Source: Malacoraja senta (lineage: Eukaryota). From it: a stretch of 64,000 nt of DNA. The translations under genes and the position numbers were made by a program. Shown one piece after another: positions 10,883 through 41,235 of this stretch (position 1 is the first letter of the stretch; the number at the start of each line of letters is the position of its first letter). The stretch is taken from positions 5,148,001 to 5,212,000 of the forward strand of contig CM075990.1 in the NCBI GenBank assembly GCA_038087875.1, written 5' to 3'. Under the pieces are notes generated by a model. The model was not told the DNA's origin and searched no databases. It saw only the letters and a list, made by a program, of their open reading frames with translations.

Positions 10883-11776
10883 CCATATAACAATTACAGC
10901 ACAGAAACAGGCCATCTCGGCCCTTCTAGTCCATGCCGAACACTTACTCTCACCTAGTCCCATCTACCTGCACTCAGACCATAACCCTCCATTCCTTTCC
11001 CGTCCATATACCTATCCAATTTATTTTTAAATGATAAAAACGAACCTGCCTTCACCACTTCCACTGGACGCTCATTCCACACAGCTACCACTCTCTGAGT
11101 AAAGAAGTTCCCCCTCATGTTGCCCCTAAACTTTTGTCCCTTAATTCTCAAATCATGTCCTCTTGTTTGAATCTTCCCTACTCTCAATGGAAAAAGCTTA
11201 TTCACTTCAACTCTGTCTATCCCTCTCATAATTTTAAAGACCTCTATCAAGTCCCCGCTTAACCTTCTGCACTCCAAAGAATAAAGACCTATCTTGTTCA
11301 ACCTTTCTCTGTAACTTAGGTGCTGAAACCCAGGCAACATTCTAGTAAATCTCCTCTGTACTCTCTCTATTTTGTTGACATCTTTCCTATAATTTGACAA
11401 CCAGAATTGTACACCATATTCCAAAATTGGCCTCACCAATGCCTTGTACAATTTTAACATTACATCCCAACTTCTATACTCAATGCTCTGATTTATAAAG
11501 GCCAGCACACCAAAAGGCTATCTACATGAGATTCCACCTTCAGGGAACTATGCACAGTTATTCCTAGATCCCTCTGTTCAACTGCATTCCTCAATTCGCT
11601 ACCATTTACCATGTACGTCCTATTTTGATTTGTCCTACCAAGATGTAGCACCTCATACTTATCAGCATTAAACTCCATCTGCCATCTTTCAGCCCACTCT
11701 TCCAAATGGCCTAAATCTCTCTGTAGACTTTGAAAATCTACTTCATTATCCACACCACCTATCTTAGTATCATCTG
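10883..11776 (-). mobile_element. CR1 LINE 3' fragment, different subfamily
   Basis: ADDTKIGG...LEYGVQFW...FFTQRVVAVWN...GYGLSAGRWD*. Additional short CR1 3' ends near 12970, 13440, 16890, 19650, 20410, 26085, 27265, 48280, 49720, 50580, 56090, 58870, 59160 and 62370. Confidence 0.88.
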
Positions 11777-12093
11777 CGGGTTCATTGGCTTCTGTAAAAT
11801 TGTCCCTAGTGTGTAGGATAGAACTAGTGAATGGGTGATCACAGGTCAGCATGGACTCTGGGGGGGGGGGGGGGGGGGTAACCCTAAGCTTAACTACCTT
11901 TTCCCCAGCAGTTGAAACTCTTAGCCTTGGTATTGCTCCCCACAGTTTTTTACCACTTCAAACCTCTTCTGTTTGACCTTGAATCTTCCACCCTCCTCAC
12001 ATCCTAAACTGGCCCCTTCTGCCTTCTAGGATATAGTTTATTCTCAAACATCTCTTTCCTCCCCAAACTGCTTGACAAGTTGTTTTTCCAGTC

Positions 12094-12232
12094 TTCTTCT
12101 TCTTGCGTGTGGCGTGCACAGCCTAAAGTTGTAGGTCAACTTATTCTATTTGATCCATTTGTTTGTGCACGTCGGATTGATTGCATTAGTCGAAACAGGG
12201 TGGACCACGTGAAGGTTGCGAGCTCCCACCCC
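12094..12232 (-). mobile_element. Short non-autonomous retroelement (Ingi/Vingi-like) with a 5' HDV-like ribozyme
   Basis: TSD TTTTTCCAGTC at 12083-12093 and 12235-12245; (GAA)n tail on the minus strand; the 3' part ends ...GTT GAC CTA CAA CTT TAG (VDLQL*), like Vingi ORF ends as I recall them. Confidence 0.7.
12179..12232 (-). ncRNA. Minimal HDV-like ribozyme (Pr77-like P3/L3), partly mutated
   Basis: Minus strand GGGGTGG ga GCTCGCA ACC TTCACGT GGT CCACCCT g tttcga C TAA TGCAATC. 7-bp P1 with G1.U; P3 ACC/GGT; P2 5 of 7 pairs; P4 reduced to about a UUCG loop; catalytic C at 12189. Confidence 0.7.
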
Positions 12233-15200
12233 GTTTTTTCCAGTCAATGGTTAACATTTTTCAGGGGAGATGGACAAATTCGCAGCATTCTTAGAAGTAT
12301 ATTTAACAACATTTAGGGACCAGGAATTGGAATGTATGGAGGGTAGGACAAAGGCTTTATTATATGGGTTGAAGTGCATTGGCCAGCAGAATGACATTAG
12401 AACCCACCTGAAAGAAAGTACCGCAGGTGCAGGAGGTGTGAAATAAAATCAGAAAAGATAGTGTAGATCATTAGAACTTTTCCCCAGCGTGTGGGGACCG
12501 CTGTGAGAACAATGGAGGGCCCGGCTTGGGAAGGGGGGGGGGGGGAAATGGGGGGGGACTCTAGTTTTAGAATCCTCTGCTCAAGGAATAAGCCTGCGTT
12601 CGTTTGTTTGTTCGTTCCGGTTAAAGGGCCTGTCCCACTTGGGCGTCATTTGCACGTCATTTACATGATATCATTTACACATCATTACGCATGCATGGTG
12701 AGTGGTGAGACGTGGTGGCGTAGGCAGGATTTTGGGTTTCACAAGATCTTCGCGCGCCACCTGCGTGACGCGCCAATGACACCCGTGGGATAGGCCCTTA
12801 AGGCGCTGTGCACACGACAGCCTGCCAACAGTTACTTGTCATTTTCTTCTTTATTCGCTTTTAATTTTATTTTAATTTCAACTTTTCGTGTATCTTGTTG
12901 TGGGTTAGGACTGTTGACAGACCAATTTCCCTCCGGAGATGAATAGAGTTCTATCGCATCATATCAAAAGATTTGAAGGGACAAGGTTAAGGTGAGAGAG
13001 GTAGAGTTTAAAGATGGAGCAGTATTTTCTACACAGAGAGTAGTGGGTGCCTGGAGCGTTGCCAGGGGTGGTGGTGGAGGCAGACACAAGAGTGACATTT
13101 ATGAGGCTTTTAAATAGATACATGGGTATGCAGGGAATGGAGGGATATGCATTGTGTGCCGGTAGATGAGATTAGTTTAACTTGGCATTATGTTCAGCAC
13201 AGACTTTGTGGGCTGAAGGACTTGTCATGTGCGATATTGTTCTATGTTCCATGTTCTGTCTAAAAATCAGTAATTGCTCAACAGAGCTTTCCTACCAGAA
13301 GCTTTCATCAGAGTTGCAAAATATTCCTGTTGCAACAAGTTTTAAACAAAGGTGGAAAGTGGTGGGAAGTTGCGCTGTGGAGAGAGAAACAGAATGTGGG
13401 GCCAGCAGAAACACTACAACAACTGCGTTCATATATAAACTCATAGAGTCATACAGCATGGAAACAGGCCCTTTGGCCCAACTTGTCTATGCAGATCAAC
13501 AATCCCCATCTAAGCTGGTCCCATTTGCTGCCATTGTACCTATACAATTGTCTTTTTAATGCTGTTATCGTACCTGCCTCAACTACCTCCTCTGGCAGCT
13601 TGTTCCATGTACCCACCACCCCCTACACAATGGGCACTGGAAACTTCGAATGAAGATAGGAAATGCTGGAAGTACTCAGCAGGCAGTAAGCATTGATTAA
13701 TAAAAACAAAGATAACATCTCATGTTACAGTGGTGCAGCTGGTAGAGCTGCCGCTGATGTCTGTGAGGAATTTGTACATGAGGTTTTTTTTGGATGCTCT
13801 AATTTCCCAAAGACCTGCGGATCGGTAGGCTGTTTGGCCCTACAAATTGCTCGCAGGTTGTAGATGTGGTGGAATTTGAGGAGAATATGTGATAATTTAT
13901 TAAATATGTGTGGTTGGTATAAATGGTGTTGGTGTAGGAAGGAACTGCAGATGTTGGTTTAAACCGAAGATAGACACAAAAAGCTGGGGTAACCCAGCGG
14001 GACAGGCAGTATCTCGGGAGAGAAGGAATGGGTGACGTTTTGGGTCAAGACTCTTCTTCAGACTTCAGACAAATGGTGTTTGATGGTTTTGCAGACTCAG
14101 TGGGCTGAAGGGCCTGTTTCTGTGTAGGATATCTCTATTTCTAAATCAGTTGACTTTGGAAGGCTGCTATGTGCTATCGGCATCTGTATCTGCACCAGCA
14201 TCTACAGTTCCAACATACACATGTCATGTGCTATCTGGCACGAGCTGTGGGCAGGGAAGTCTGTTGGGGTCGGTCTGACAATGTAAATAACAATGCAAAC
14301 GTGTGGAGTCAGGCTTGTGAAGAGTAAGGAGTTGATCTGTAGAGTGGTCACACAATGTAAGTGGCAATGGCAGCATAAACGCTTGCGAAGTATGGAGGAT
14401 GACAAAAATACAGATATATCTCAGATTAATCTGGGGGGTCTACATGGATCCCATTCCACCATCCCAATAGTCGATACAAAATCATCTTATACCATGGGCT
14501 CCAAGGCTGTGCCTTGACTGGGCTTTCCTTACTCTTGGTAATTGGTCTTAAGGGCCAGTCCCACTTGGCCGTCATTTACGCGTAACTTACGCGACATCAT
14601 TTACGCGTCACAACGCACGACGCGCGCGTTGTGACACGCACGTGATGCGCGCATGGGACGCCTTACACGCGCATGGTGCATGGTGACGTAGGCAGTGACG
14701 CGCGTTAGTGCCCGGCTCCCCAGGATTTTGGTATGTACAAAATCTTCGCGCGCCATCTGCGTGACGCGCAAATGACGGCCAAGTGGGACAGGCCCTGTTC
14801 CAGGAGACTTGGGTTTGGGGTGACTGGAGGTGGGGATGTGGTGAGGATAATGGGATTGGTTACGTTGTGAATAGCTTCCCCACTCTATGACGAGAGGTAC
14901 CAGCAACTTATTTCCAGTCCCTTGACTTTTGGCTCCTTTTCCCTGAGAGAGGTTGCATGAGATTGTTCCAAAGAGCAGGCGTCATCTCGTAATGCCCTGG
15001 CCTAGTCTAGTTCAGTCTATGTCACTCAGTACATTCTGACTGTTATACCCTCGCCAACTGTGGGAGTGTTTTCACCATGTATTATAATTAATATAACACT
15101 TTGGTTTTTGGGAGTCCAGCACCTTAGGATATCCTGGGGTCGTGAGTGCTGATAACAAATGCATGGTTTTACTGAAGAGAGACTCAAAAAGCTGGAGTAA

Positions 15201-17816: not shown

Positions 17817-20800
17817 GTTGCCGTTAGTAGTGGTTCATTTACATACAAAGTAATTAGAGACGTGTCAAGAGTTAGGCTTCCTGTTCACAGGTTGACTCAA
17901 GGTCTAGAAGGCAAATTTGAATGACTGGACAACACAGCTGCAGTGAGGGAGATGAGAGTTTTAGAAACTCCCCAGAAATGGCCCTTAAAGGTTTGGCATG
18001 TGAAGAAAATATACGTCAACTGAAAGACCAATCAAGACTCATCGCTCTGCCGTTTGTAGGAATCAAAATACATACAGATGTCAGTCTTCTGAATATAATA
18101 TTATCATGGGAGCTCACTCAGTGGGTGTCCATAATTTGGGCACTTTTAATCCAGGGACAGCCTGTAAATAGGACATTGACAGGCTGTATTCTGCCTGCCC
18201 TGGACCTTTGACATAACTTAAAATCATTACAATAATCAAAGATAGACACAAAAAGCTGGAGTAACAGCGGGACAGGCAGCATTCCCGGAGAGAAGGAATC
18301 GGTGATGTTTCGGGTCGACGCCCTTCTTCAGACTGAGTTACACCAGCAATTTGTGTCCTTTTGTGTATTAACCAGCATCTCCAGTTCTGCACTCTGTCTG
18401 GACCACTTCACTAACTGGAACTTTCCCCTATCTGAAACTACTGGCAGTATGAAGCAGTCCTTTGGCTGAAACTTTGCCTGTGATCTTTGGCTTCTCAGGA
18501 CCTTGGGTTTCGGGACCTTTCTGTTCTGGCACCTTTTTCTCTAGCCTTGGTCTCCAGGCCCCATTTTGTGCTTGTGCTGTATTTTGTCTGCAATGTTTAA
18601 TTGTTTTGGTATCTCCTGTGCCTGGGTCAATTTGTTATCTGTGATTTTCTTTTCTGCTCCCTGGATTAAGGAAGTGTGTCCTATATATTCTGAGCAGGGA
18701 GATGCGTTTCAGGGAAGTGTCGATATACATCAGTGTCTGAGGCAATGTTGGTGCTCGGGGAGGGATTAAGAATGATAAAGGAGGTGTGTTGATATACACG
18801 AGCAATGAGACTTGGCAGGAACAGGAGTCGTCCATACACAAAAAGAACTGTCGTCAAAAGAAAGCAAATGACAAAATATGTTGAAAAAGCAGACAGCAGT
18901 TGTGTAGGATTCATTCAATGCAATTATACGTGAAGCCTTGGACTGAAGCATTTTGCAAAGTTCTAAATTAAATTGTGTAGAAAGGAACTGCAGATGCTGG
19001 TTTATACCATAGACCATTATATACCATTATATACCATGGTATATACCATTATACCAAGTGCTGGTGTAACTCAGCGGGTCAGGCAGCATCTCTGGAGGAA
19101 AAGGATGGGTGGCGTTTTAGGCCAGGACTCTTCTTCAGACTTCTAAGAACTCCTTCAGACTTCTAAATTGTATTGACGAGTTCAAGGGAAATTGTAATCA
19201 GTCTGATCACAGAGGCTTAGGAATACATTTAGCTTAAGCGAGAAATCTAATTATCTCAAATGCAGGGATGTGTTATCAACCAGACATTACTAGCCACATC
19301 ACATCAGCAGTTTTAGTTTAGTTATAGTTTTGAAGATGCAGCATGGTAACAGGACCTTCAGCCCACCTACATCCTCATCCACTCCCTACCCAATTTACAG
19401 AGGCCATTTAACCTACAAACCTGCACGTCTTTGAGATGTGGGAAGAAACTGGAGCACGGGGAGGAAATCCCCGTGGTCATAGGGAGAACGTGCAAACTAT
19501 AGACAGAACCCGAGGCTGGGATTGAACCTGGGTCTCTGATGCTGTGAGGCAGCAGCTCTACCAGTTGCCTCACTGTGCCAGACACTGGTCACATCGCACC
19601 AGCAATCCCCACCCCTTTGCACCAGTAGTCACTGGTAACATCACTAGCAACATAGAAAGGCATAGATAGTGTGGATGTGGAAAGGATGTTTCCACTGGTG
19701 GGAGAGTCTAGGACCAGAGGTCATAGTCTCAGAATTAAAGGGTGCTCTTTTAGAAAGGAGGTGAGGAGGAACTTCTTTACTCAGAGGGTAGATAATCTGT
19801 GGAACATTGCCACAGAGGGCTGTGGAGGCCAAGTCAGTGGATATTTTTAAAGGCAGATTCTAGATTAGAACATGTGTCAAGGGTTATGGGGAGAAGGCAG
19901 GAAAATGGGATTAGGAGGCAGAGATCAGCCATGATTGAATGGCGGAGTGGACTCGATGGGCCGAATGGCCTAATTCTACTCCTATAACTTGTGAACATCA
20001 TTAGTGGGGCGGTACAGCAAGCTGCTGCCTTACAGCGTCACACACCCGAGTTTGATCCTGACTATGGGTACTGTCTGTACAGAGTTTGTACCTTCTCCCC
20101 GTGGCTGTGTGGGCTTTCTCCCGATGCTCTGGTTTCCTCCCACATTCCAAAGACCGGTGGGTTTGTAGGTTAATTGGCTTCTGTAAAGTGTCTCTGGTGC
20201 ATAGAATAGAACTAGTGTATAGGTGATTGTTGGTTGGCGTGGACTCAGTGGGCAGAAGGGCCTGTTTCCATGCTGTATCTATAAACTAAACTGAACTATC
20301 ACTAATCATTGATCATTTCACACCAGCAATCACTAGTCACAATACATCAGCAGTCACTAGCCACATCACACAACAGTCACTAGTCACATCAGTGACCACA
20401 TCACACAACAGAAGGATGAGGGGTGATCTTATAGAAACATATATAATTATAAAAGGACTGGACAAGCTAGATGCAGGAAAAATGTTCCCAATGTTGGGCG
20501 AGTCCAGAACCAGGGGCCACAGTCTTAGAATAAAGGGGAGGCCATTTAGGACTGAGGTGAGAAAAAACGTTTTTCATCCATTATGGAATTATGGAATTCC
20601 CTGTCACAGAGGGCAGTGGAGGCCAAATCACTGGATGGATTTAAGAGAGAGTTAGATAGAGCTCTAGGGGCTAGTGGAGTCAAGGGATATGGGGAGAAGG
20701 CAGGCACGGGTTATTGATTGGGGATGATCAGCCATGATCACAATGAATGGCGGTGCTGGTTCGAAGGGCCGAATGGCCTCCTCCTGCACCTATTTTCTAT

Positions 20801-20837
20801 GTTTCTAACAGTCACTAGCTACATCAGTGGCCACTTC

Positions 20838-21320
20838 ACACTAGCAGTCACAAGTTAGTTCACACTAGTAGTCACTAGTCAGTTCACACTAGCAGTCACT
20901 AATGAGTTCACACTAGCAGTCACTAGTTAGTTCACACTAGTAGTCACTAGTCAGTTCACACTAGCAGTCACTAATGAGTTCACACTAGCAGTCACAAGTT
21001 AGTTCACACTAGTAGTCACTAGTCAGTTCACACTAGCAGTCACTAATGAGTTCACACTAGCAGTCACTAGTTAGTTCACACTAGTAGTCACTAGTCAGTT
21101 CACACTAGCAGTCACTAATGAGTTCACACTAGCAGTCACTAGTTAGTTCACACTAGTAGTCACTAGTCAGTTCACACTAGCAGTCACTAATGAGTTCACA
21201 CTAGCAGTCACTAGTCAGTTCACACTAGTAGTCACTGATGAGTTCACACTAGTAGTCACTAGTCAGTTCACACTAGCAGTCACTGATGAGTTCACACTAG
21301 CAGTCACTAGTCAGTTCACC
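20838..21320. repeat. 24-bp minisatellite (CACACTAGYAGTCACTARTNAGTT) with a 72-bp higher-order period
   Basis: About 20 units read directly, with three variants cycling in order. Confidence 0.95.
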
Positions 21321-23535
21321 CCAGCAGCCACTACCCACTGGCCACATCACGCCAGCAACACCTGACCGCCTCCGTTCCAGGAAGAAATGAATGACTTCCC
21401 GTCGGTTTGTGCCAGTTGGTTCCTATTTGCTGAGCCGCATCAGACAAGCCGCTGCCTGCCTGCAATTGGCCGCGTATCCATCAGGAGCTGTGGCGCCTTC
21501 CCCCGGCCGCAGTGAATGGAGAGAGAGAGTGAGGGAGGGAGGGAGGGAGGGAGGGAGAGTGAGAGAGAGAGAGGGAGAGGGAGAGGGAGAGGGAGAGGGA
21601 GGGAGAGAGGGAGGGAGAGAGGGGGCAGAGCACGATGACCCACAGTAACCCGGCCAGGGAGGCTGATGCAACGCTGTGACTGAGCCGGCAAGAGTGCACG
21701 TACACCCCGCTCTTGTACACAGCTCACACACACATCATGTGGGGAAATAACATCACCAGGCCAAACTGGTGAGGTGAGGAATGTGTCATCCTGGCCGCAG
21801 TCATTTAAATAATTGCCCATTACACATCGCACCACCGTTTTCTACTTTCAGGGCGGATCTCAGTCAGAGGAAAAGTTACAGAATTAACCAGCGAAACACA
21901 ACGTGCAGGATGACACACAGGGAACTGCAGGTGCTGGGATCTTCAGTAAAGCACAAAGTGCTGGAGTAACTCAGCCAGTCTCTCTCTCACTGCCCTTCCC
22001 TCTGTGATTCCGGCTCTCCCTCCCACCCTGTTCTGCCCCAGATTTGCCACTGCGGCCACCTGCGTTTCTACCTGTCCATTCGCCCCACAAATGCTGCCTG
22101 ACCTGCTGAGTTACTCCAGCACATGGGTTTGACTCAAGTACTGGAGGAACTCAGCAAGTCAGGCAGCAACAGGGGAGGGAATAGACGGGTGATATTTTGG
22201 GCCAGGAAAAAAAAAAGTCACAAAGTGCTGGAGCGACTCAGTGGGTCAAGCAGCATCTCTGGAGAACATGGATAGGTGATGTTTGGGGTGTGATGCTTCT
22301 GACCTCCCTTCCATCGAGGGGATCTATCGCAGTCGCTGCCTCAAAAAGGCTGGCAGCATCATCAAGGACCCACACCATCCTGGCCACACACTCATCTCCC
22401 TACTACCTTCAGGTAGAAGGTACAGGAGCCTGAAGACTGCAACGACCAGGTTCAGAAATAGCTACTTCCCCACAGCCATCAGGCTATTAAACTTGGCTCG
22501 GACAAAACTATGAACATTAATAGCCCATTATCTGTTATTTGCACTTTATCAGTCTATTTATTCATGTGTGTGTATATATTTATATACTGGTATATGGACA
22601 CACTGATCTGTTCTGTGGTCAATGCCTACTATGTTCTGTTGTGCTGAAGTAAAGCAAGAATTTCATTGTCCTATCTGGGACACATGACAATAAACTCTCT
22701 TGACTTGACGTCTTCAGACTGTCTGAAGAAGTGTCCCAACCTGAGACGTCACCTATCCATGTTATGCTTCTACACTGGGGTTTGGTTATTGTCTGTTACT
22801 GTGACTGAGCTTCAAGTAGACCCCGGTCGAATGAATTATTGGGTCCGTGTGTGCCCCTGTGTGGGTTTGTGCTTGCAGTATATGGGGCACTTGTTATAGG
22901 CCAATCTGTCTGTCCACATGTGCAGGAAGGAACTGCAGATGCAGGCTTACACCGATGATAGACACAAAATGCTGGAGTAACTCAGCGAGACAGACAGCAT
23001 CACTGGGGAAAATAAATAGGTGACGTTTCGGGTCGAGACCCTTCTTCAGACACCGTCTGAATTCCCTATTTCTTTTCTCCAGAGATGGCTCGACTGTAAT
23101 CATGTATTGTCTTTCCACTGTAGACAGAAATGCTAGAGAAACTCAGCGAGTAAGGCAGCATCTGTGGAGCGAAGGAAATGGGCAACGTTTCGGGCCGAAA
23201 CCCTTCTTCAGACTGATGTGAGGGTGGGGGGGGGGGGGGGGGGGAGGGAAATAAGAAAGGAAGAGGAGGAGCCAGTGGGCTGAGGGAGAGCTGGGAAGGG
23301 GAGGAGAAAGTAAGGACTACCTGAAATTAGAGAAGTCAATGTTCATACCGTTGGGGTCTTTCCACTGACTGGTTAGCACACAACAAAAGCTATTCACTGT
23401 ACCTCGGTACACGTGACAATAAAATGAAGTGAAGTGAAGTGACCCGCTGAGCCACTCCAGCATGGTGTGTCTATCTGGTTGTCCACATTTGTGGCTATCA
23501 GAGGATGGGGATACTGGAGAATGAATCTAGACAAT

Positions 23536-23601
23536 GGCCCCATAGCAGAAGCGTCCACGTCGCGGGGCTGGAATCTGGAAGTATCCTGAGCTAATTCTGC
23601 T
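23536..23601 (+). ncRNA. HDV-like self-cleaving ribozyme (double pseudoknot)
   Basis: P1 GGCCCC/GGGGCT (G1.U wobble); P2 AGCAGAA/TTCTGCT; P3 GCG/CGC; L3 TCCACGT; P1.1 CC/GG; P4 TCTGGA-agta-TCCTGA (one mismatch); J4/2 G-C-T-A-A with the catalytic C at 23591. Confidence 0.85.
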
Positions 23602-23729
23602 GCCTCCATCATCTACTGCCACAAGTGATGGCTTCCACTGATTGTCGCCGGAAGCTTGCGTCCTTTTCAGGACGGACAATGACAGCGAGGCCAACATTTG
23701 TAACAAGATGGACATGAAAAGAAGAAGAA
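23536..23729 (+). mobile_element. Short non-autonomous retroelement (RTE-like 3' end) headed by an HDV-like ribozyme
   Basis: TSD GAATCTAGACA at 23523-23533 and 23730-23740; (GAA)n tail; 3' end reads EANICNKMDMKRRR, reminiscent of RTE-clade ORF ends; no tRNA A/B boxes seen. Confidence 0.75.
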
Positions 23730-28602: not shown

Positions 28603-30219
28603 CAGTGGCTTGCAAAAGTATTCATACCCCTTGAAATTTTCCACATATTGTCACGTTACAACCACAAACGTAAATGTATTTTATTGGGATTTTATGTGAT
28701 AGACCAACACAAAGTGGTGCATAATTGTGAAGTGGAAGGAAAATGCTACATGGTTTTCAAATTTTTTTACAAATAAAAAACTGAAAAGTGTGGCGTGCAA
28801 AAGTATTCAGCCCCTCTGAGTCAATACTTTGTAGAACCACTTTTTGCTGCAATTACAGCTGCGTCTTTTGGGGTATGTCTCTACCAGCTTTGCACATCTA
28901 GAGACTGAAATGTTTGCCCATTCTTCTTTGCAAAATAGCTCAAGCTCAGTCAGATTGGATGGAGAGCGTCTGTGAACAGCAATTTTCAAGTCTTGCCAGA
29001 GATTCTCAATTGGATTTAGGTTTGGACTTTGACTGGGCCATTCTAACACATGAATATGCTTTGATCTAAACCATTCCATTATAGCTCTGGCTGTATGTTT
29101 AGGGTCGTTGTCCTGCTGGAATGTGAACCTCCGCCCCAGTCTCAAGTCTTTTGCAGACTTTTACAGGTTTTCTTCCAAGATTGTCCTGTATTTGGCTCCA
29201 TCCATCTTCCCATCAACTCTGACCAGCTTCCCTGTCCCCGTCCCTGCTGAAGAAAAGCATCCCCACAGCATGATGCTGCCACCACCATGTTTCACAGTGG
29301 GGATGGTGTGTTCAAGGTGATGTGCAGTGTTAGGTTTCCGCCACACATAGCGTTTTGCATTTAGGCCAAAAACTTCAATTTTGGTCTCATCTGACCATAG
29401 CACCTTCCTCCACATATTTGCTGTGTCCCCCACATGGCTTGTGGCAAACTGCAAACGGGACTTCTTATGGCTTTTTTTCAACAATGGCTTTCTTCTTGCC
29501 ACTCTTCCATAAAGGCCCGATTTGTGGAGTGCACGACTAATAGTTGTCCTGTGGACAGATTCTCCCACCTGAGCTGTGGATCTCTGCAGCTCCTCCAGAG
29601 TTACCATGGGCCTTGGCTGCTTCTCTGATCAATGCTCTCCTTGCCCGGCCTGTCAGTTTAGGTGGACGGCCATGTCTTGGTAGGTTTGCAGTTGTGCCAT
29701 ACTCTTTCCATTTTCGGATGATGGATTGAACAGTGCTCCGTGAGATGTTCAAAGCTTGGGACATTTGTTTATAACCTAACCCTGCTTTAAACTTCTCCAC
29801 AACTTTATCCCTGACCTGTCTGGTGTGTTCCTTGGGCTTCATGATGCTGTTTGTTCACTAATGTTCTCTAACAAACCTCTGATGCCTTCACAGAATAGCT
29901 GTATTTATACTGAGATTAGATTACACACAAGTGGACTATTTTTTAATTAGGTGACTTCTGAAGGCAATTGGTTGCACTGGGTTTTATTTAGGGGTATCAG
30001 AGTAAAGGGGGCTGAATACTTTTGCACGCGACACTTTTCAGTTTTTTATTTGTAAAAAAATTTGAAAACCATGTATCATTTTCCTTCCACTTCAAAATTA
30101 TGCACCACTTTGTGTTGGTCTATCACATAAAATCCCAATAAAATACATTTACGTTTGTGGTTGTAACGTGACAAAATGTGGAAAAGTTCAAGGGGTATGA
30201 ATACTTTTGCAAGCCACTG
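28603..30219 (-). mobile_element. Full-length Tc1/mariner DD34E transposon (Passport-like), IR/DR type
   Basis: TA|CAGTGGCTTGCAAAAGTATTCA...TGAATACTTTTGCAAGCCACTG|TA; ~212-bp TIRs with an internal direct repeat; inserted in the (TA)n of a Rex1/Babar 3' UTR. Confidence 0.96.
28821..29842 (-). pseudogene. Tc1 transposase (DD34E), two frameshifts and one stop
   Basis: MKPKEHTRQVRDKVVEK...GRPPKL...WSDETK...[13 protein letters not shown]...FQQDNDPKH...SPNLNPIE (34 residues between D and E)...GSTKY*. Confidence 0.95.
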
Positions 30220-34968: not shown

Positions 34969-37903
34969 TCAGTATCCCGTACCTGCCTCCTCTCCATACC
35001 CCCTGATCCCCTTAGCCACAAGGGCCACATCTAACTCCTTCTAAAATATAGCCAATGAACTGGCCTCAACTACCCTCTGTGGCAGAGAGTTCCAGAGATT
35101 CACCACTCTCTGTGTGAAAAAGTTTTTCCTCATCTCGGTCTTAAAGGATTTCCCCCTTATCCTTAAGCTGTGACCCCTTGTCCTGGACTTCCCCAACATC
35201 GGGAACAATCTTCCTGCATCTAGCCTGTCCAACCCCATAAGAATTTTGTACGTTTCTATAAGATCCCCTCTCAATCTCCTAAATTCTAGCGAGTATAAGC
35301 CAAGTCTATCCAGTCTTTCTTCATATGAAAGTCCTGACATCCCAGGAATCAGTCTGGTGAACCTTCTCTGCACTCCCTCTATGGCTATAATGTCCTTCCT
35401 CAGATTTGGAGACCATAACTGAACGCAATACTCCAGGTGTGGTCTCACCAAGATCCTGTACAACTGCAGTAGAACCTCCCTGCTCCTATACTCAAATCCT
35501 TTTGCTACGAAAGCTAACATACCATTCGCTTTCTTCACTGCCTGCTGCACCTGCATGCCTACTTTCAATGACTGGTGTACCATGACACCCAGGTCTAGCT
35601 GCATCTCCCCATTTCCTAATCGGCCACCATTTAGATAGTAGTCTGCTTTCCTGTTTTTGCCACCAAAGTGGATAACCTCACATTTATCCACATTATACTG
35701 CATCTGCCAAACATTTGCCCACTCACCCAGCCTATCCAAGTCACCTTGCAGTCTCCAAGCATCCTCCTCACAGCTAACACTGCCCCCCAGCTTAGTGTCA
35801 TCCGCAAACTTGGAGATGTTGCCTTCAATTCCCTCATCCAGTTCATTAATATAAATTGTAAATAGCTGGGGTCCCAGCACTGAGCCTTGCGGTACCCCAC
35901 TAGTCACTGCCTGCCATTGTGAAAAGGACCCGTTTACTCCTACTCTTTGCTTCCTGTTTGCCAGCCAGTTCTCTATCCACATCAATACTGAACCCCCAAT
36001 ACCGTGTGCTTTAAGTTTGTATACTAATCTCTTATGTGGTACCTTGTTGAAAGCCTTCTGAAAGTCCAGATACAACACATCCACTGGTTCTCCCCTATCC
36101 ACTCTACTAGTTACATCCTCGAAAAATTCTATAAGATTCGTCAGACATGATTTACCTTTCGTAAATCCATGCTGACTTTGTCCAATGATTTCACCACTTT
36201 CCAAATGTGCTGCTATCCCATCTTTAATAAGTGACTCTAGCAGTTTCCCCACTACTGATGTTAGACTAACTGGTCTGTAATTCCCCGTTTTCTCTCCTCC
36301 CTTCTTAAAAAGTGGGGTTACGTTTGCTACCCTCCAATCCTCAGGAACTACTCCAGAATCTAAAGAGTTTTGAAAAATTATCACTAATGCATCCACTATT
36401 TCTGGAACTAACTTCCTTAAGTACTCTGGGATGCAGCCTATCTGGCCCTGGTGATTTATCGGCCTTTAATCCATTCAATTTACCGAACACCACTTCCCGA
36501 CTAACCTGGATTTCACTCAGTTCCTCGATCTCCTTTGACCCGCGGTCCCCTGCTATTTCTGGCAGATTATTTATGTCTTCCTTAGTGAAGACGGAACCAA
36601 AGTAGTTATTCAATTGGTCCGCCATATCCTTGTTCCCCATGATCAACTCACCTGTTTCTGACTGGAAGGGACCTACATTTGTTTTAACTAATCTCTTTCT
36701 CTTCACATATCTATAAAAACTTTTGCAGTCAGTTTTTATGTTCCCAGCCAGTTTTCTTTCATAATCTATTTTCCCTTTCCTAATTAAGCCCTTTGTCCTC
36801 CTCTGCTGGTCTCTGAATTTCTCCCAGTCCTCTGGTATGCTGCTTTTTCTGGCTAATTTGTACGCATCATCTTTTGCTTTGATACTATCCCTGATTTCCC
36901 TTGTTATCCATGGAGGCACTACCTTCCCCAATTTATTCTTTTGCCAAATTGGGATGAACAATTTTTGTAGTTCATCCATGCAGTCTTTAAATGCCTTCCA
37001 TTGCATATCCACCGTCAATCCTTTTAGAACTAATTGCCAGTCAATGTTGGCCAATTCACGTCTCATACCCTCAAAGTTACCTTTCTTTAAGTTCAGAACC
37101 ATTGTTTCTGAATTAACAATGTCACTCTCCATCCTAATGAAGGACTCAACCATATTATGGTCACTCTTGCCCAAGGGGGCACGCACAACAAGACTGCTAA
37201 CTAACCCTTCCTCATTACTCAATACCCAGTCTAGAATAGCCTGCTCTCTCGTTGGTTCCTGTACATGTTGGTTTAGATAACTATCCCGCATACATTCCAA
37301 GAAATCCTCTTCCTCAGCACCCCTGCCAATTTGATTCACCCAATCTATATGTAGATTGAAGTCACCCATTATAACTGTTTTGCCTTTGTTGCACGCATTT
37401 CTAATTTCCTGTTTGATACCATCTCCAACTTCACTACTACTGTTAGGTGGCCTGTACACAACACCCACCAGCGTTTTCTGCCCCTTAGTGTTTCGCAGCT
37501 CTACCCATACCGATTCCACATCCTCCAAGCTAATGTCCTTCCTTTCCACTGCGTTAATCTCCTCTCTAACCAGCAACGCTACCCCACCTCCTTTTCCTTT
37601 CTCTCTATCCCTCCTGAATATTGAATATCCCTGGATGTTCAGCTCCCAGCCTTGGTCACCCTGGAGCCATGTCTCCGTGATCCCAACTATATCATAATCA
37701 TTAATAGCTATCTGCACGTTCAACTCATCCACCTTATTACGAATGCTCCTTGCATTGAGACACAAAGCCTTCAGGCTTGTTTTTACAACGCTCTTACCCC
37801 TTTTACAATTATGTTGAAAAGTGGCCCTTTTTGATTTTTGTCCTGGATTTGTCTGCCTACCACTTTTACTTTTCACCTTGCTACCTATTGCTTCCGCCCG
37901 CAT
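34969..37903 (-). pseudogene. CR1 ORF2 (APE endonuclease plus reverse transcriptase), one frameshift and one nonsense codon
   Basis: LCLNARSIRNK, GITETW, GDFN and SDH (endonuclease); YLDFQKAF, GVPQGSVLGP and FADDT (RT). Frameshift at ~36410; TAG at 35041-35043 where a paralogous copy at ~58990 has AAG. Start position approximate. Confidence 0.93.
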
Positions 37904-38082
37904 TTTACACCCCTCTGTTTCTCTGCTCACCCATTTAAGAACCCCACCACCTCTTATTCTCTGTTTATTATTGTTTTCTTCTTTCCCCCCTACATGTTGG
38001 GTCTGAGTGCTTTCCTTCTCTGCCTCCTGTCTCACACACTGTCTAATAGCTTTCTCTATTTGAGTCCCTCCCCCCAACCGTT

Positions 38083-39010
38083 CTAGTTTAAAGTCTCCCC
38101 AGTGGCCTTTGCTGATCTCCCCGCCAGGATATCGGTCCCCCTCAGGTTCAAGTGCAACCCATCCTTTTTGTACAGGTCGCACCTTCCACAAAAGAGGTCC
38201 CAATGATCCAGAAATTTGAATCCCTGCCCTCTGCACCAGTCCTTCAGCCACGCATTTATCCTCCACCTCGCTCCATTCCTACTCTCACTGTCGCGTGGCA
38301 CAGGCAGTAATCCCGAGATTGTTCCCTTTGCTGTCCTTCTCCTTAACTCCCCTCCTAACTCCCTAAATTCTCCTTTCAGGACCTCTTCTCTTTTTTTACC
38401 TATGTCATTGGTACCTATATGTACCACGACCTCGGGCTCCTCTCCCTCCCCTTTCAGGATATCTTGGACACGTTGAGACACATCACAGACCCTGGCACCA
38501 GGGAGGCAAACTACCATCCGGGTCTCCCGACTGCGTCCACAGAATCGCCTGTCTGACCCCCTAACTATAGAGTCCCCTATTACTAATGCCCTCCTCTTCT
38601 TTTCCTTACCCTTCTGAGCAACAGGACCGGTCTCTGTACCGGAGGCCCGGCCGCTGTCGCTACCCCCAGGTAGGCTGTCCCCCTCAACAGTACTCAAACA
38701 GGAGTACTTATTGTCAAGGTGTACAGCCACCAGGGTACTCTCTAGTCCCTGCCTGTGCCCCTTGCCTCTCCCAACCGTGACCCACTTGCCTGCCTCCTGT
38801 GGTCTTGGAGTGACCACCTCCCTGCAACTCCTCTCAATGACTTCCTCGCTCTCCCTGACCAGACGGAGGTCATCGAGCTGCTGCTCCAGGTTCCTAATAC
38901 GGTCCCTTAGGAGCCCCATCTCGATGCACCTGGCGCAGATGTGGACGTCTGTCAGATTCCTTGATCTCCCACATCTGACATCCAGAACAACAAACTGCCC
39001 TGGCCCTCAT
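38083..39010 (-). pseudogene. CR1 ORF1 (CxxC..CxxC zinc finger, coiled coil, SGNH/GDSL esterase-like domain), frameshifted near the N-terminus
   Basis: MRARAVCCSGCQMWEI / DVHICARCIEMGLLRDRIRNLEQQL...ALVIGDSIVR...VHIGTND...DGLHLN; frame change near 38950. Confidence 0.88.
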
Positions 39011-39540
39011 ACTCCCCTTACCCTGGATACAATACATCTGACATCCAGAACAGTAAACTGCCCTGGCCCTCATACTCCCCTTACCCTGGATACAATACAT
39101 CTGGCATCCAGAACAGTAAACTGCCCTGGCCCTCATACTCCCCTTACCCTAGGATACAATACATCTGACATCCAGAACAGTAAACTGCCCTGGCCCTCAT
39201 ACTCCCCTTACCCTGGATACAATACATCTGACATCCAGAACAGTAAACTGCCCTGGCCCTCATACTCCCCTTACCCTGGATACAATACATCTGACATCCA
39301 GAACAGTAAACTGCCCTGGCCCTCATACTCCCCTTACCCTAGGATACAATACATCTGACATCCAGAACAGTAAACTGCCCTGGCCCTCATACTCCCCTTA
39401 CCCTGGATACAATACATCTGACATCCAGAACAGTAAACTGCCCTGGCCCTCATACTCCCCTTACCCTGGATACAATACATCTGACATCCAGAACAGTAAA
39501 CTGCCCTGGCCCTCATACTCCCCTTACCCTAGGATACAAT
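38971..39540. repeat. 63-bp tandem repeat x9 (higher-order unit 63+63+64 = 190 bp x3) spanning the CR1 ORF1 start codon
   Basis: Unit acatctgacatccagaacagtaaactgccctggccctcatactccccttaccct(a)ggatacaat, counted directly. Confidence 0.97.
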
Positions 39541-39692
39541 ACAAAACAAGCTGCTACAATACAGTACAATCAGCAGGGATCTGACTCCCAATCAGCTGCT
39601 CCCTCTTGTCTGCTTCCACCAATCAGCGGCTTCCTTAAGCCCACTTGTTTTTGAAGTGCGAGTGGAACTTGGAACGTTGCAGATTTCGGTTT

Positions 39693-41018: not shown

Positions 41019-41235
41019 AAGGTACACAAAAATGCTGGAGAAACTCAGCGGGCGCAGCAGCATCTATGGAGCGAAGGAAATAGGTAACGTTTCGGGCCGA
41101 AACCCTTCTTCAGACTTCTCGGCCCGAAACGTTACCTATTTCCTTCGCTCCATAGATGCTGCTGCGCCCGCTGAGTTTCTCCAGCATTTTTGTGTACCTT
41201 CGATTTTCCAGCATCTGCAGTTCCTTCTTTAACAC
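41019..41235. mobile_element. Palindromic non-coding Penelope pLTR insertion with a 16-bp TSD
   Basis: Inverted pLTR plus direct pLTR with near-perfect ~80 bp arms; TTAATCTACAAACCTG duplicated at 41003-41018 and 41236-41251; inserted within a SINE. Confidence 0.85.

Follow-up and report, generated by a model that had tools for sequence, protein, structure and literature searches.

A bipartite mini-element of Malacoraja senta built from the ends of a Vingi-like LINE and headed by a predicted P4-less HDV-like ribozyme fold

The locus and its surroundings

We analyzed a stretch of 64,000 nucleotides of Malacoraja senta (contig CM075990.1, positions 5,148,001 to 5,212,000), called the window below. 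On its minus strand, at 12094–12232, lies a copy of a mini-element of about 130 nt whose tail terminates at 12094 (Table 1); element nt n corresponds to window position 12233 − n. An earlier note, made from the letters alone, had described here a small HDV-like ribozyme fold heading a nonautonomous retroelement, and a check of the sequence placed P1, P2, P3 with L3, C44, the (GAA)n tail, and the TSD each at the position that it had named. G1 sits 0–2 nt from the TSD, the range coming from the ambiguity of an A run, which agrees with the distance of at most 2 nt given in the note. Its two P2 mismatches are also present: the copy departs from its family at 12222 and 12220, breaking two of the seven P2 pairs and leaving five. 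J1/2 is 2 nt long, G37 is able to pair with C22 and so give a one-pair P1.1, and L3 is identical to that of the Rfam CPEB3 ribozyme consensus.

The window also carries a copy of a second mini-element family (Table 1), which matches Rfam RF00622 with 42.5 bits against a cut-off of 35. This family gave 2042 first-look candidates; it has TSDs and a (GAA)n tail, starts at G1 in all 14 loci compared, and had no copies in 600 random kb. The 5′ strand of its P2, its P3, and its L3 are those found upstream of a Vingi-like ORF in the metagenome locus L221.

Of 111 long open frames, the 82 that were scanned yielded no host gene. Decayed RT remains at 10966–11777 adjoin the mini-element, and a young CR1-like LINE occupies 34972–39006 on the minus strand, with a GDSL-esterase ORF1, a nearly intact ORF2, and 95% identity to locus L102. 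Remains of two Tc1/Sleeping Beauty-like transposons lie at 28810–29854 and 57318–58515, both on the minus strand, the former inside 229-nt inverted repeats. Tandem arrays of 24 and 63 nt and a SINE hairpin account for 20728–21429, 38908–39606, and 41042–41177; the hairpin consists of two head-to-head SINE pieces and leads to false microRNA matches. Elsewhere in the genome, L104 and L061–L090 represent a young LINE family that bears RNase H and in which many frames of 1277 aa are still open. The common SINEs of the genome resemble those of a cartilaginous fish.

Table 1. Features of the mini-element copy, with its TSDs, and of the second family in the window
Feature	Element nt	Window position	Strand	Remark
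HDV-like ribozyme fold, 54 nt	1–54	12179..12232	-	also at LINE 5′ end
Predicted cleavage point	5′ of G1	12232	-
P1, 5′ strand	1–7	12226..12232	-	pairs nt 30–36; G1.U36
P2, 5′ strand	10–16	12217..12223	-	pairs nt 48–54
P3 and L3	17–29	12204..12216	-	P3 17–19/27–29; L3 20–26, 7 nt
P1, 3′ strand	30–36	12197..12203	-
J1/4 and P4 remnant, 7 nt	37–43	12190..12196	-	at most one P4 pair
J4/2	44–47	12186..12189	-	predicted catalytic C44 at 12189
P2, 3′ strand	48–54	12179..12185	-
Segment common to LINE 5′ UTR	55–80	12153..12178	-	A-rich at nt 68–80
Junction, 13 nt	81–93	12140..12152	-	mini-element only
Final 39 nt common to LINE		12101..12139	-	last codons, stop codon, 3′ UTR, tail start
(GAA)n tail		12094..12104	-
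TSD, 3′ copy		12082..12093
TSD, 5′ copy		12233..12245		one extra A in A run
Second mini-element family		23536–23722	+	CPEB3-like fold, 6-pair P1, P4

The family and its fold

A first look at the genome gave 2462 candidates for the mini-element, a figure that should not be taken for a copy number. In 600 kb, sampled as 60 evenly spaced pieces of 10 kb, three copies were present, all full-length, which extrapolates to ∼9,700 (about 10,000) copies in the 1.94-Gb genome with a 95% range of 2,000–28,400; the abundance suspected in the earlier note was thus borne out. From 180 loci, we obtained 102 distinct copies with a 3′ end, and 95 of these reached the 5′ end. Because 60 of the 180 loci were chosen with full-length queries, the 30 loci chosen by the 3′ 63 nt alone give the fairer figure, 27 of them being full-length. 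A TSD was called in 80 of the 95 copies and measured 11–13 nt in 62 of those. In 74 of the 80, it ends no more than 2 nt from G1, and the extra nucleotides are never more than 3, so that the element does not reach upstream of G1 in the way that would have spoken against the note. G occupies nt 1 in 74 of the 95 full-length copies, and about one-fifth have lost it or carry another letter there. T precedes G1 in 55 of the 95, and the TSDs mostly start with A, a weak target preference. The family contains at least two subfamilies. The window copy belongs to subfamily A, from which subfamily B differs by A32G, U45G, A61G, A71T, one inserted A, and A97T; the B-type letters at nt 32 and 97 predominate in contigs from four sequencing runs. 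Runs under five organism labels contain the queried stretch completely, two labels from two studies being left once possible sources are set aside, and none of the listed runs with the stretch is of RNA.

Taken by itself, the window copy is only modestly above chance, since its HDV descriptor score is 11.3 and matches scoring at least 11 turned up at 0.2 per window in 10 shuffles. The nested-folding z-scores at the element are null (−0.11 and 0.16), and an Rfam search of the entire window with E values up to 1 matched nothing at the mini-element. The unmutated copy L031 scores 17.3, and a score of 13 or more was never reached in the 10 shuffled windows. Unmutated copies form all 17 pairs of P1, P2, and P3. 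Every pair and core letter is intact in 29 of the 95 copies, and 47 have at most one broken pair per helix, shares of up to a third to a half in a biased sample, chosen by similarity to the queries. A at nt 11 and T at nt 13 each occur in 93 copies, and P2 is accordingly whole in the family, as the note had predicted; with the pairing letters so widely kept, the mismatches of the window copy represent decay. The computed energy of P2 and P3 together is −8.6 kcal/mol in an unmutated copy vs. +0.3 in that of the window; having lost two P2 pairs, the latter is probably dead and no longer able to cleave. The core letters are kept in 93 (U20), 85 (C24), 87 (G25), 92 (C44), 92 (A46), and 93 (A47) of the 95 copies, the losses at C24 and G25 being CpG decay, and the catalytic C on which the note had staked its reading is among those retained. 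We take these alignments of the family to settle that the fold is real, beyond the weak evidence of the window copy itself.

The fold is a nested double pseudoknot of the HDV type with a G1.Y at the cleavage site. It has the L3 core of U, C, and G and the C-N-R-A of J4/2, and its P1.1, for which one or two pairs are expected, is formed by C22–G37 alone, as in CPEB3. It has every fixed feature of the HDV descriptor in the literature (G1.Y, U20, C24, G25, and C-N-A-A), and according to that source P4 is dispensable and makes no tertiary contacts (PMC6326823). A P4 helix is missing, the 7 nt between P1 and C44 allowing at most one pair, and we therefore file the mini-element ribozyme with the minimal HDV-like subtype rather than outside the family. 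The four commonest shared changes within nt 1–54 are neutral to the fold, G8A and U45G/A being unpaired and A32G and C35U leading to wobbles, and a fifth, A17U, disrupts a P3 pair in 6 of the 95 copies. That four of the five spare the fold is supportive but weak evidence for it; no two-sided covariation was found within the 95 copies. When whole unmutated copies were folded with a program that cannot score pseudoknots, P2 and an alternative pairing beat P1. A G37–C44 mispair hairpin, the type of error designed against in PMC6326823, was computed to be unstable at +2.0 kcal/mol. In another HDV-like ribozyme, linkers of 0–1 nt, compared with the 2-nt J1/2 here, nearly abolished activity (PMC4908430), and P4-less ribozymes of 56 nt were active in vitro (bioRxiv 2023.06.13.544163). 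The master element would probably cleave itself at G1.

The partner LINE and its relatives

A query with the 3′ 63 nt returned mini-elements alone, and a search with PF14529 yielded only other LINE types among the 50 loci examined and was rejected as a route to the partner. Contigs from the sequencing runs with unlike sequence upstream of nt 94 pointed to it, and a query with the last 39 nt plus the tail found the partner locus L116, which shares those 39 nt. The 3′ part of L116 gave 494 candidates and the 5′ part led to near-full-length copies, among them L189, a TSD-flanked copy that spans 2.8 kb, shows a gap of 0.28 kb against L187, and has the same head at its start. The partner LINE is ∼3.1 kb long and has nt 1–80 and nt 94–132 in common with the mini-element, so that both ends of the latter are shared with one LINE; with its TSDs, simple-repeat tail, and no ORF, the mini-element has the make-up of a bipartite nonautonomous LINE. 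The 5′ plus 3′ construction proposed in the earlier note is hereby confirmed. Its expectation of an autonomous-type LINE with the same ends held for the sharing itself, the lengths being 80 and 39 nt and not ∼55 and ∼60; the ribozyme is as unusually small as it had stated, though not confined to the mini-element, the LINE 5′ end having the same fold. Three LINE copies (L148, L179, and L201) are collinear with the LINE but have an internal deletion that fuses the 5′ part to the 3′ part, and we read them as independent births of bipartite elements.

The partner LINE contains APE (PF14529) and RT (PF00078) domains; no match to RNase H was found in it, and the control LINE L104 gave one. It matches the 1019-aa single-ORF protein P0001 end to end, which at 72% is the closest homologue, and it appears to be a compact single-ORF APE-RT element without RNase H, the single ORF being read from the P0001 match as the copies are broken. 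The 120 listed homologues are mostly ∼1000 aa long on contigs of ∼3.2 kb, and the RNase H family is listed for none of them. In an RT tree of 29 rows, the partner LINE falls inside a clade of ∼1000-aa RNase H-less proteins with 100/99 support, apart from three other LINE types of the same genome; no row of the tree is a named Vingi or Ingi. Among solved structures, none is nearer to it than L1 ORF2p. These properties fit the description of Vingi in PMC13708176, and of the Vingi dependence suggested in the note, the shared ends stand, whereas the label itself rests on the domain make-up and on a tree without a named Vingi; we call the LINE Vingi-like. The copies L187, L189, L191, and L197 are broken and no intact one was seen among the near-full-length copies read or mapped, and the LINE family may therefore be extinct in this genome.

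We collected relatives of the LINE from 80 metagenome loci, 18 of which include the ORF start. An HDV-like fold lies 204–229 nt upstream of the ORF in 3 of these 18 relatives of the same RT clade (100/99 support), compared with 0.03 per shuffled set. The other 15 gave no descriptor match, three of them having decayed L225-type remains recognizable by eye. An ACC...GGT look-alike precedes the ORF of L202 but matches none of the descriptors. P1, P2, and P3 of the relatives are altered in sequence with the pairing kept, a compensatory pattern read from the descriptor matches. L3 and J1/4 change in step at their second bases: U-C-C is combined with G-G in L221, L222, and the second window family, and U-U-C with G-U in the mini-element family and L225. 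The fold-bearing relatives and the second window family have 20–26 nt with a P4 where the mini-element has 7, and since they keep P4, the lineage of the mini-element and its LINE has likely lost it from a standard retrotransposon ribozyme. The ribozyme at L221:3272–3347, 229 nt upstream of the Vingi-like ORF, is near the Rfam CPEB3 consensus in P1, P3, and L3, and the resemblance fits a derivation of the mammalian CPEB3 ribozyme from an L221-like LINE.

In both the mini-element and the LINE, nt 62–69 are complementary to nt 113–120, and in subfamily B the complementarity extends to nt 59–69 with nt 113–123. All 11 pairs are present in 20 of the 34 copies with G at nt 61, and 9 pairs in 44 of the 59 copies with A. 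Folded from nt 55 to the end, a B copy beats its shuffles (0/300) and A copies are not clearly above theirs (24/300 and 31/300); the end pairing of the LINE copy L197 is not above shuffles (143/1000) and lies outside the best 8 of 269 windows. Relatives pair the sequence that follows the ribozyme with their 3′ UTR, with shuffles at 10, 14, and 3 of 1000 (one family), at 44/1000 in L222, and at 3/1000 in the second window family. In L277, L241, L240/L212 (one family), and L222, ∼20 bp form between the 3′ UTR and the 30 nt that follow the ribozyme; along the element, this pairing ranks best of 271 and of 321 windows and, in L222, second of 305. Some cross-family duplexes were as stable as the native end pairings. 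The complementarity suggests that nt 59–69 likely pair with the 3′ end and hold both ends together.

We also identified LINE copies with an inverted 5′ piece. Of 63 LINE loci chosen by their 3′ part, 58 were distinct and 12 contained such a piece (first batch, 11 of 39; second batch, only 1 of 19). In 11 of these copies the piece is the ribozyme head, running back to nt 2–18 and never beyond G1 (L149, L150, L156, L157, L161, L166, L170, L174, L175, L178, and L388). The inverted heads are joined to a distant 3′ piece, and the TSD encloses the entire insert in 10 of the 12 inverted copies. The TSD-side end of the inverted piece is at nt 71–122 in 9 of the 12, with the forward piece starting at 964–2741, a clustering of second priming that has P ∼4e-10 under a crude uniform null. 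Five of the heads are continued by sequence found only in the LINE, and none clearly by sequence found only in the mini-element; the same RNA was therefore probably primed twice. The pattern suggests that the 5′ module of the RNA is located at the second DNA nick. Many of the second-priming points fall at nt 68–80, and a simpler cause of the clustering would be that primers ending in T land on this A-rich stretch. In L1, second priming usually takes place close to the break of the forward piece. In the Vingi-like LINE its point is 0.9–2.7 kb from the break in those nine copies, and this tie to the RNA 5′ end is the unusual part, twin priming itself being known from L1. The L1 inserts that it produces are similarly flanked by TSDs and inverted in their 5′ piece, and their frequency of ∼30% in human and chimpanzee is comparable (PMC2912911).

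Possible mechanism and known systems

The observations are, in our judgment, likely explained by a bipartite element derived from a Vingi-like LINE, with a P4-less HDV-like ribozyme that would free its RNA at G1. A copy would be transcribed, probably by host read-through or from an internal promoter, and the ribozyme would then cut 5′ of G1, so that all RNAs gain the same fold-protected 5′ end and retain the ribozyme. The fixed 5′ boundary is seen in the copies; the cut is what the fold and the known HDV-like ribozymes would predict. The LINE APE-RT protein would bind the shared 3′ end and the (GAA)n tail in trans and insert the mini-element RNA by target-primed reverse transcription, giving the TSDs of 11–13 nt. 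The shared ends and the TSDs are observed, and from them we infer that mobilization in trans by the LINE protein is close to certain. Finally, nt 59–69 would pair with the 3′ end and keep the RNA ends together. More tentatively, Vingi-type RNA might form a closed loop with its 5′ module docked at the target, where the second nick would meet the RNA behind the ribozyme, an arrangement that we consider rather doubtful as a whole. If true, it would explain why the mini-element keeps 80 nt rather than 54, why copies are near-universally full-length, why subfamily B has a longer helix, and how inverted LINE copies come to capture the head.

The main rival reads the head as a ribozyme relic that no longer cuts, with an internal promoter in nt 1–80 setting the 5′ end and the fold kept, after the loss of P4, to shield the 5′ end or to be bound by the LINE protein. 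The missing P4, the 2-nt J1/2, and the one-pair P1.1 may cripple folding, and the absence or replacement of G1 in about one-fifth of full-length copies might result from a variable start or a copied cap. The Pr77 of L1Tc combines ribozyme and internal promoter roles, showing that such heads can act as promoters, and a fixed 5′ end is also compatible with an internal promoter; the two roles may also coexist here as they do in Pr77. Against a relic, the letters of the catalytic core are all kept and the shared changes avoid them, no tertiary contacts involve P4, natural ribozymes lacking it are active, and the same core is kept in relatives with distant RTs. We thus regard the non-cutting relic as a minority possibility, well behind a cutting ribozyme. 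The size of the element and its mostly full-length copies would also suit an ordinary tRNA-derived SINE with a LINE tail and a ribozyme-like head by resemblance. Its nt 37–45 are loosely similar to the B-box consensus, but the putative A and B boxes are too near each other; ARAGORN found no tRNA, and the head is not tRNA-like: it is the sequence with which the LINE itself begins, collinear with the LINE ORF. Because the LINE shares nt 1–80, this reading is refuted and highly improbable. A chance fold in one degenerate locus, to which the modest score of the window copy, the null z-scores, and the empty Rfam search would lend themselves, is refuted to the point of being negligible by the restoration of P2 in the family, by the perfect helices and score of L031, and by a fold that begins exactly at the insertion boundary and recurs in relatives.

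If the predicted ribozyme cleaves, an animal genome would contain a naturally P4-less member of the HDV-like class with an evident function, and minimal forms would be shown to be derivable from standard retrotransposon ribozymes; in the literature searched, such forms have so far come from phages and metagenomes. With ∼10,000 copies, of which up to a third to a half of our biased sample are fold-intact, the elements could cut host transcripts when inserted in sense. At 130 nt, the element further lends itself as a minimal natural template for a Vingi-type protein. Gene writing with Vingi-1 already employs donors that carry the two UTRs at their flanks (PMC13708176), and the reason for keeping the 5′ UTR is thereby directly testable, the candidates being cleavage, end pairing, and docking at the second nick.

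The closest parallels in working are NARTc/L1Tc and RIME/ingi of trypanosomes, in which a nonautonomous element likewise shares a ∼77–80-nt ribozyme-bearing LINE 5′ end, and L1Tc and NARTc, of the Ingi clade, combine cleavage at +1 with TSDs of 11–12 nt (PMC3185411 and PMC3383444). They differ in that L1TcRz needs ∼70–77 nt and has a P4, compared with a fold of 54 nt without P4 in the mini-element, in that L1Tc has an RNase H and the partner LINE has none, and in that the host here is an animal. The bipartite 5′ plus 3′ build is that of the nonautonomous Vingi derivatives of the Vingi-1_EE type (PMC5786205), and the compact single-ORF APE-RT without RNase H is that of Vingi LINEs (PMC13708176). 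Vingi is absent from the list of ribozyme-bearing clades in the available text of PMC5786205, and the available text of a 2020 review covers HDV-like ribozymes in R2 and other LINEs with no P4-less one among them (PMC7761336). A search of the open-access literature returned no Vingi ribozyme or Vingi end pairing, no P4-less ribozyme in an animal retroelement, and no head inversions.

In structure, the fold agrees with the minimal HDV-like or theta ribozymes of the drz-Mtgn-1 type, which also lack P4, are ∼55 nt long, and have the catalytic C opening J4/2. Nearly 99% of those are from gut phages, beside tRNAs, and the available text of the same scan reports none in human, mouse, and protist genomes (bioRxiv 2023.06.13.544163), whereas here the fold heads a LINE and its ∼10,000 derivatives. 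With the CPEB3 ribozyme (RF00622), the mini-element shares L3 and the G-U J1/4, and hence the one-pair P1.1. The CPEB3 ribozyme has a full P4 and a single conserved locus, and the mini-element does not match its Rfam model.
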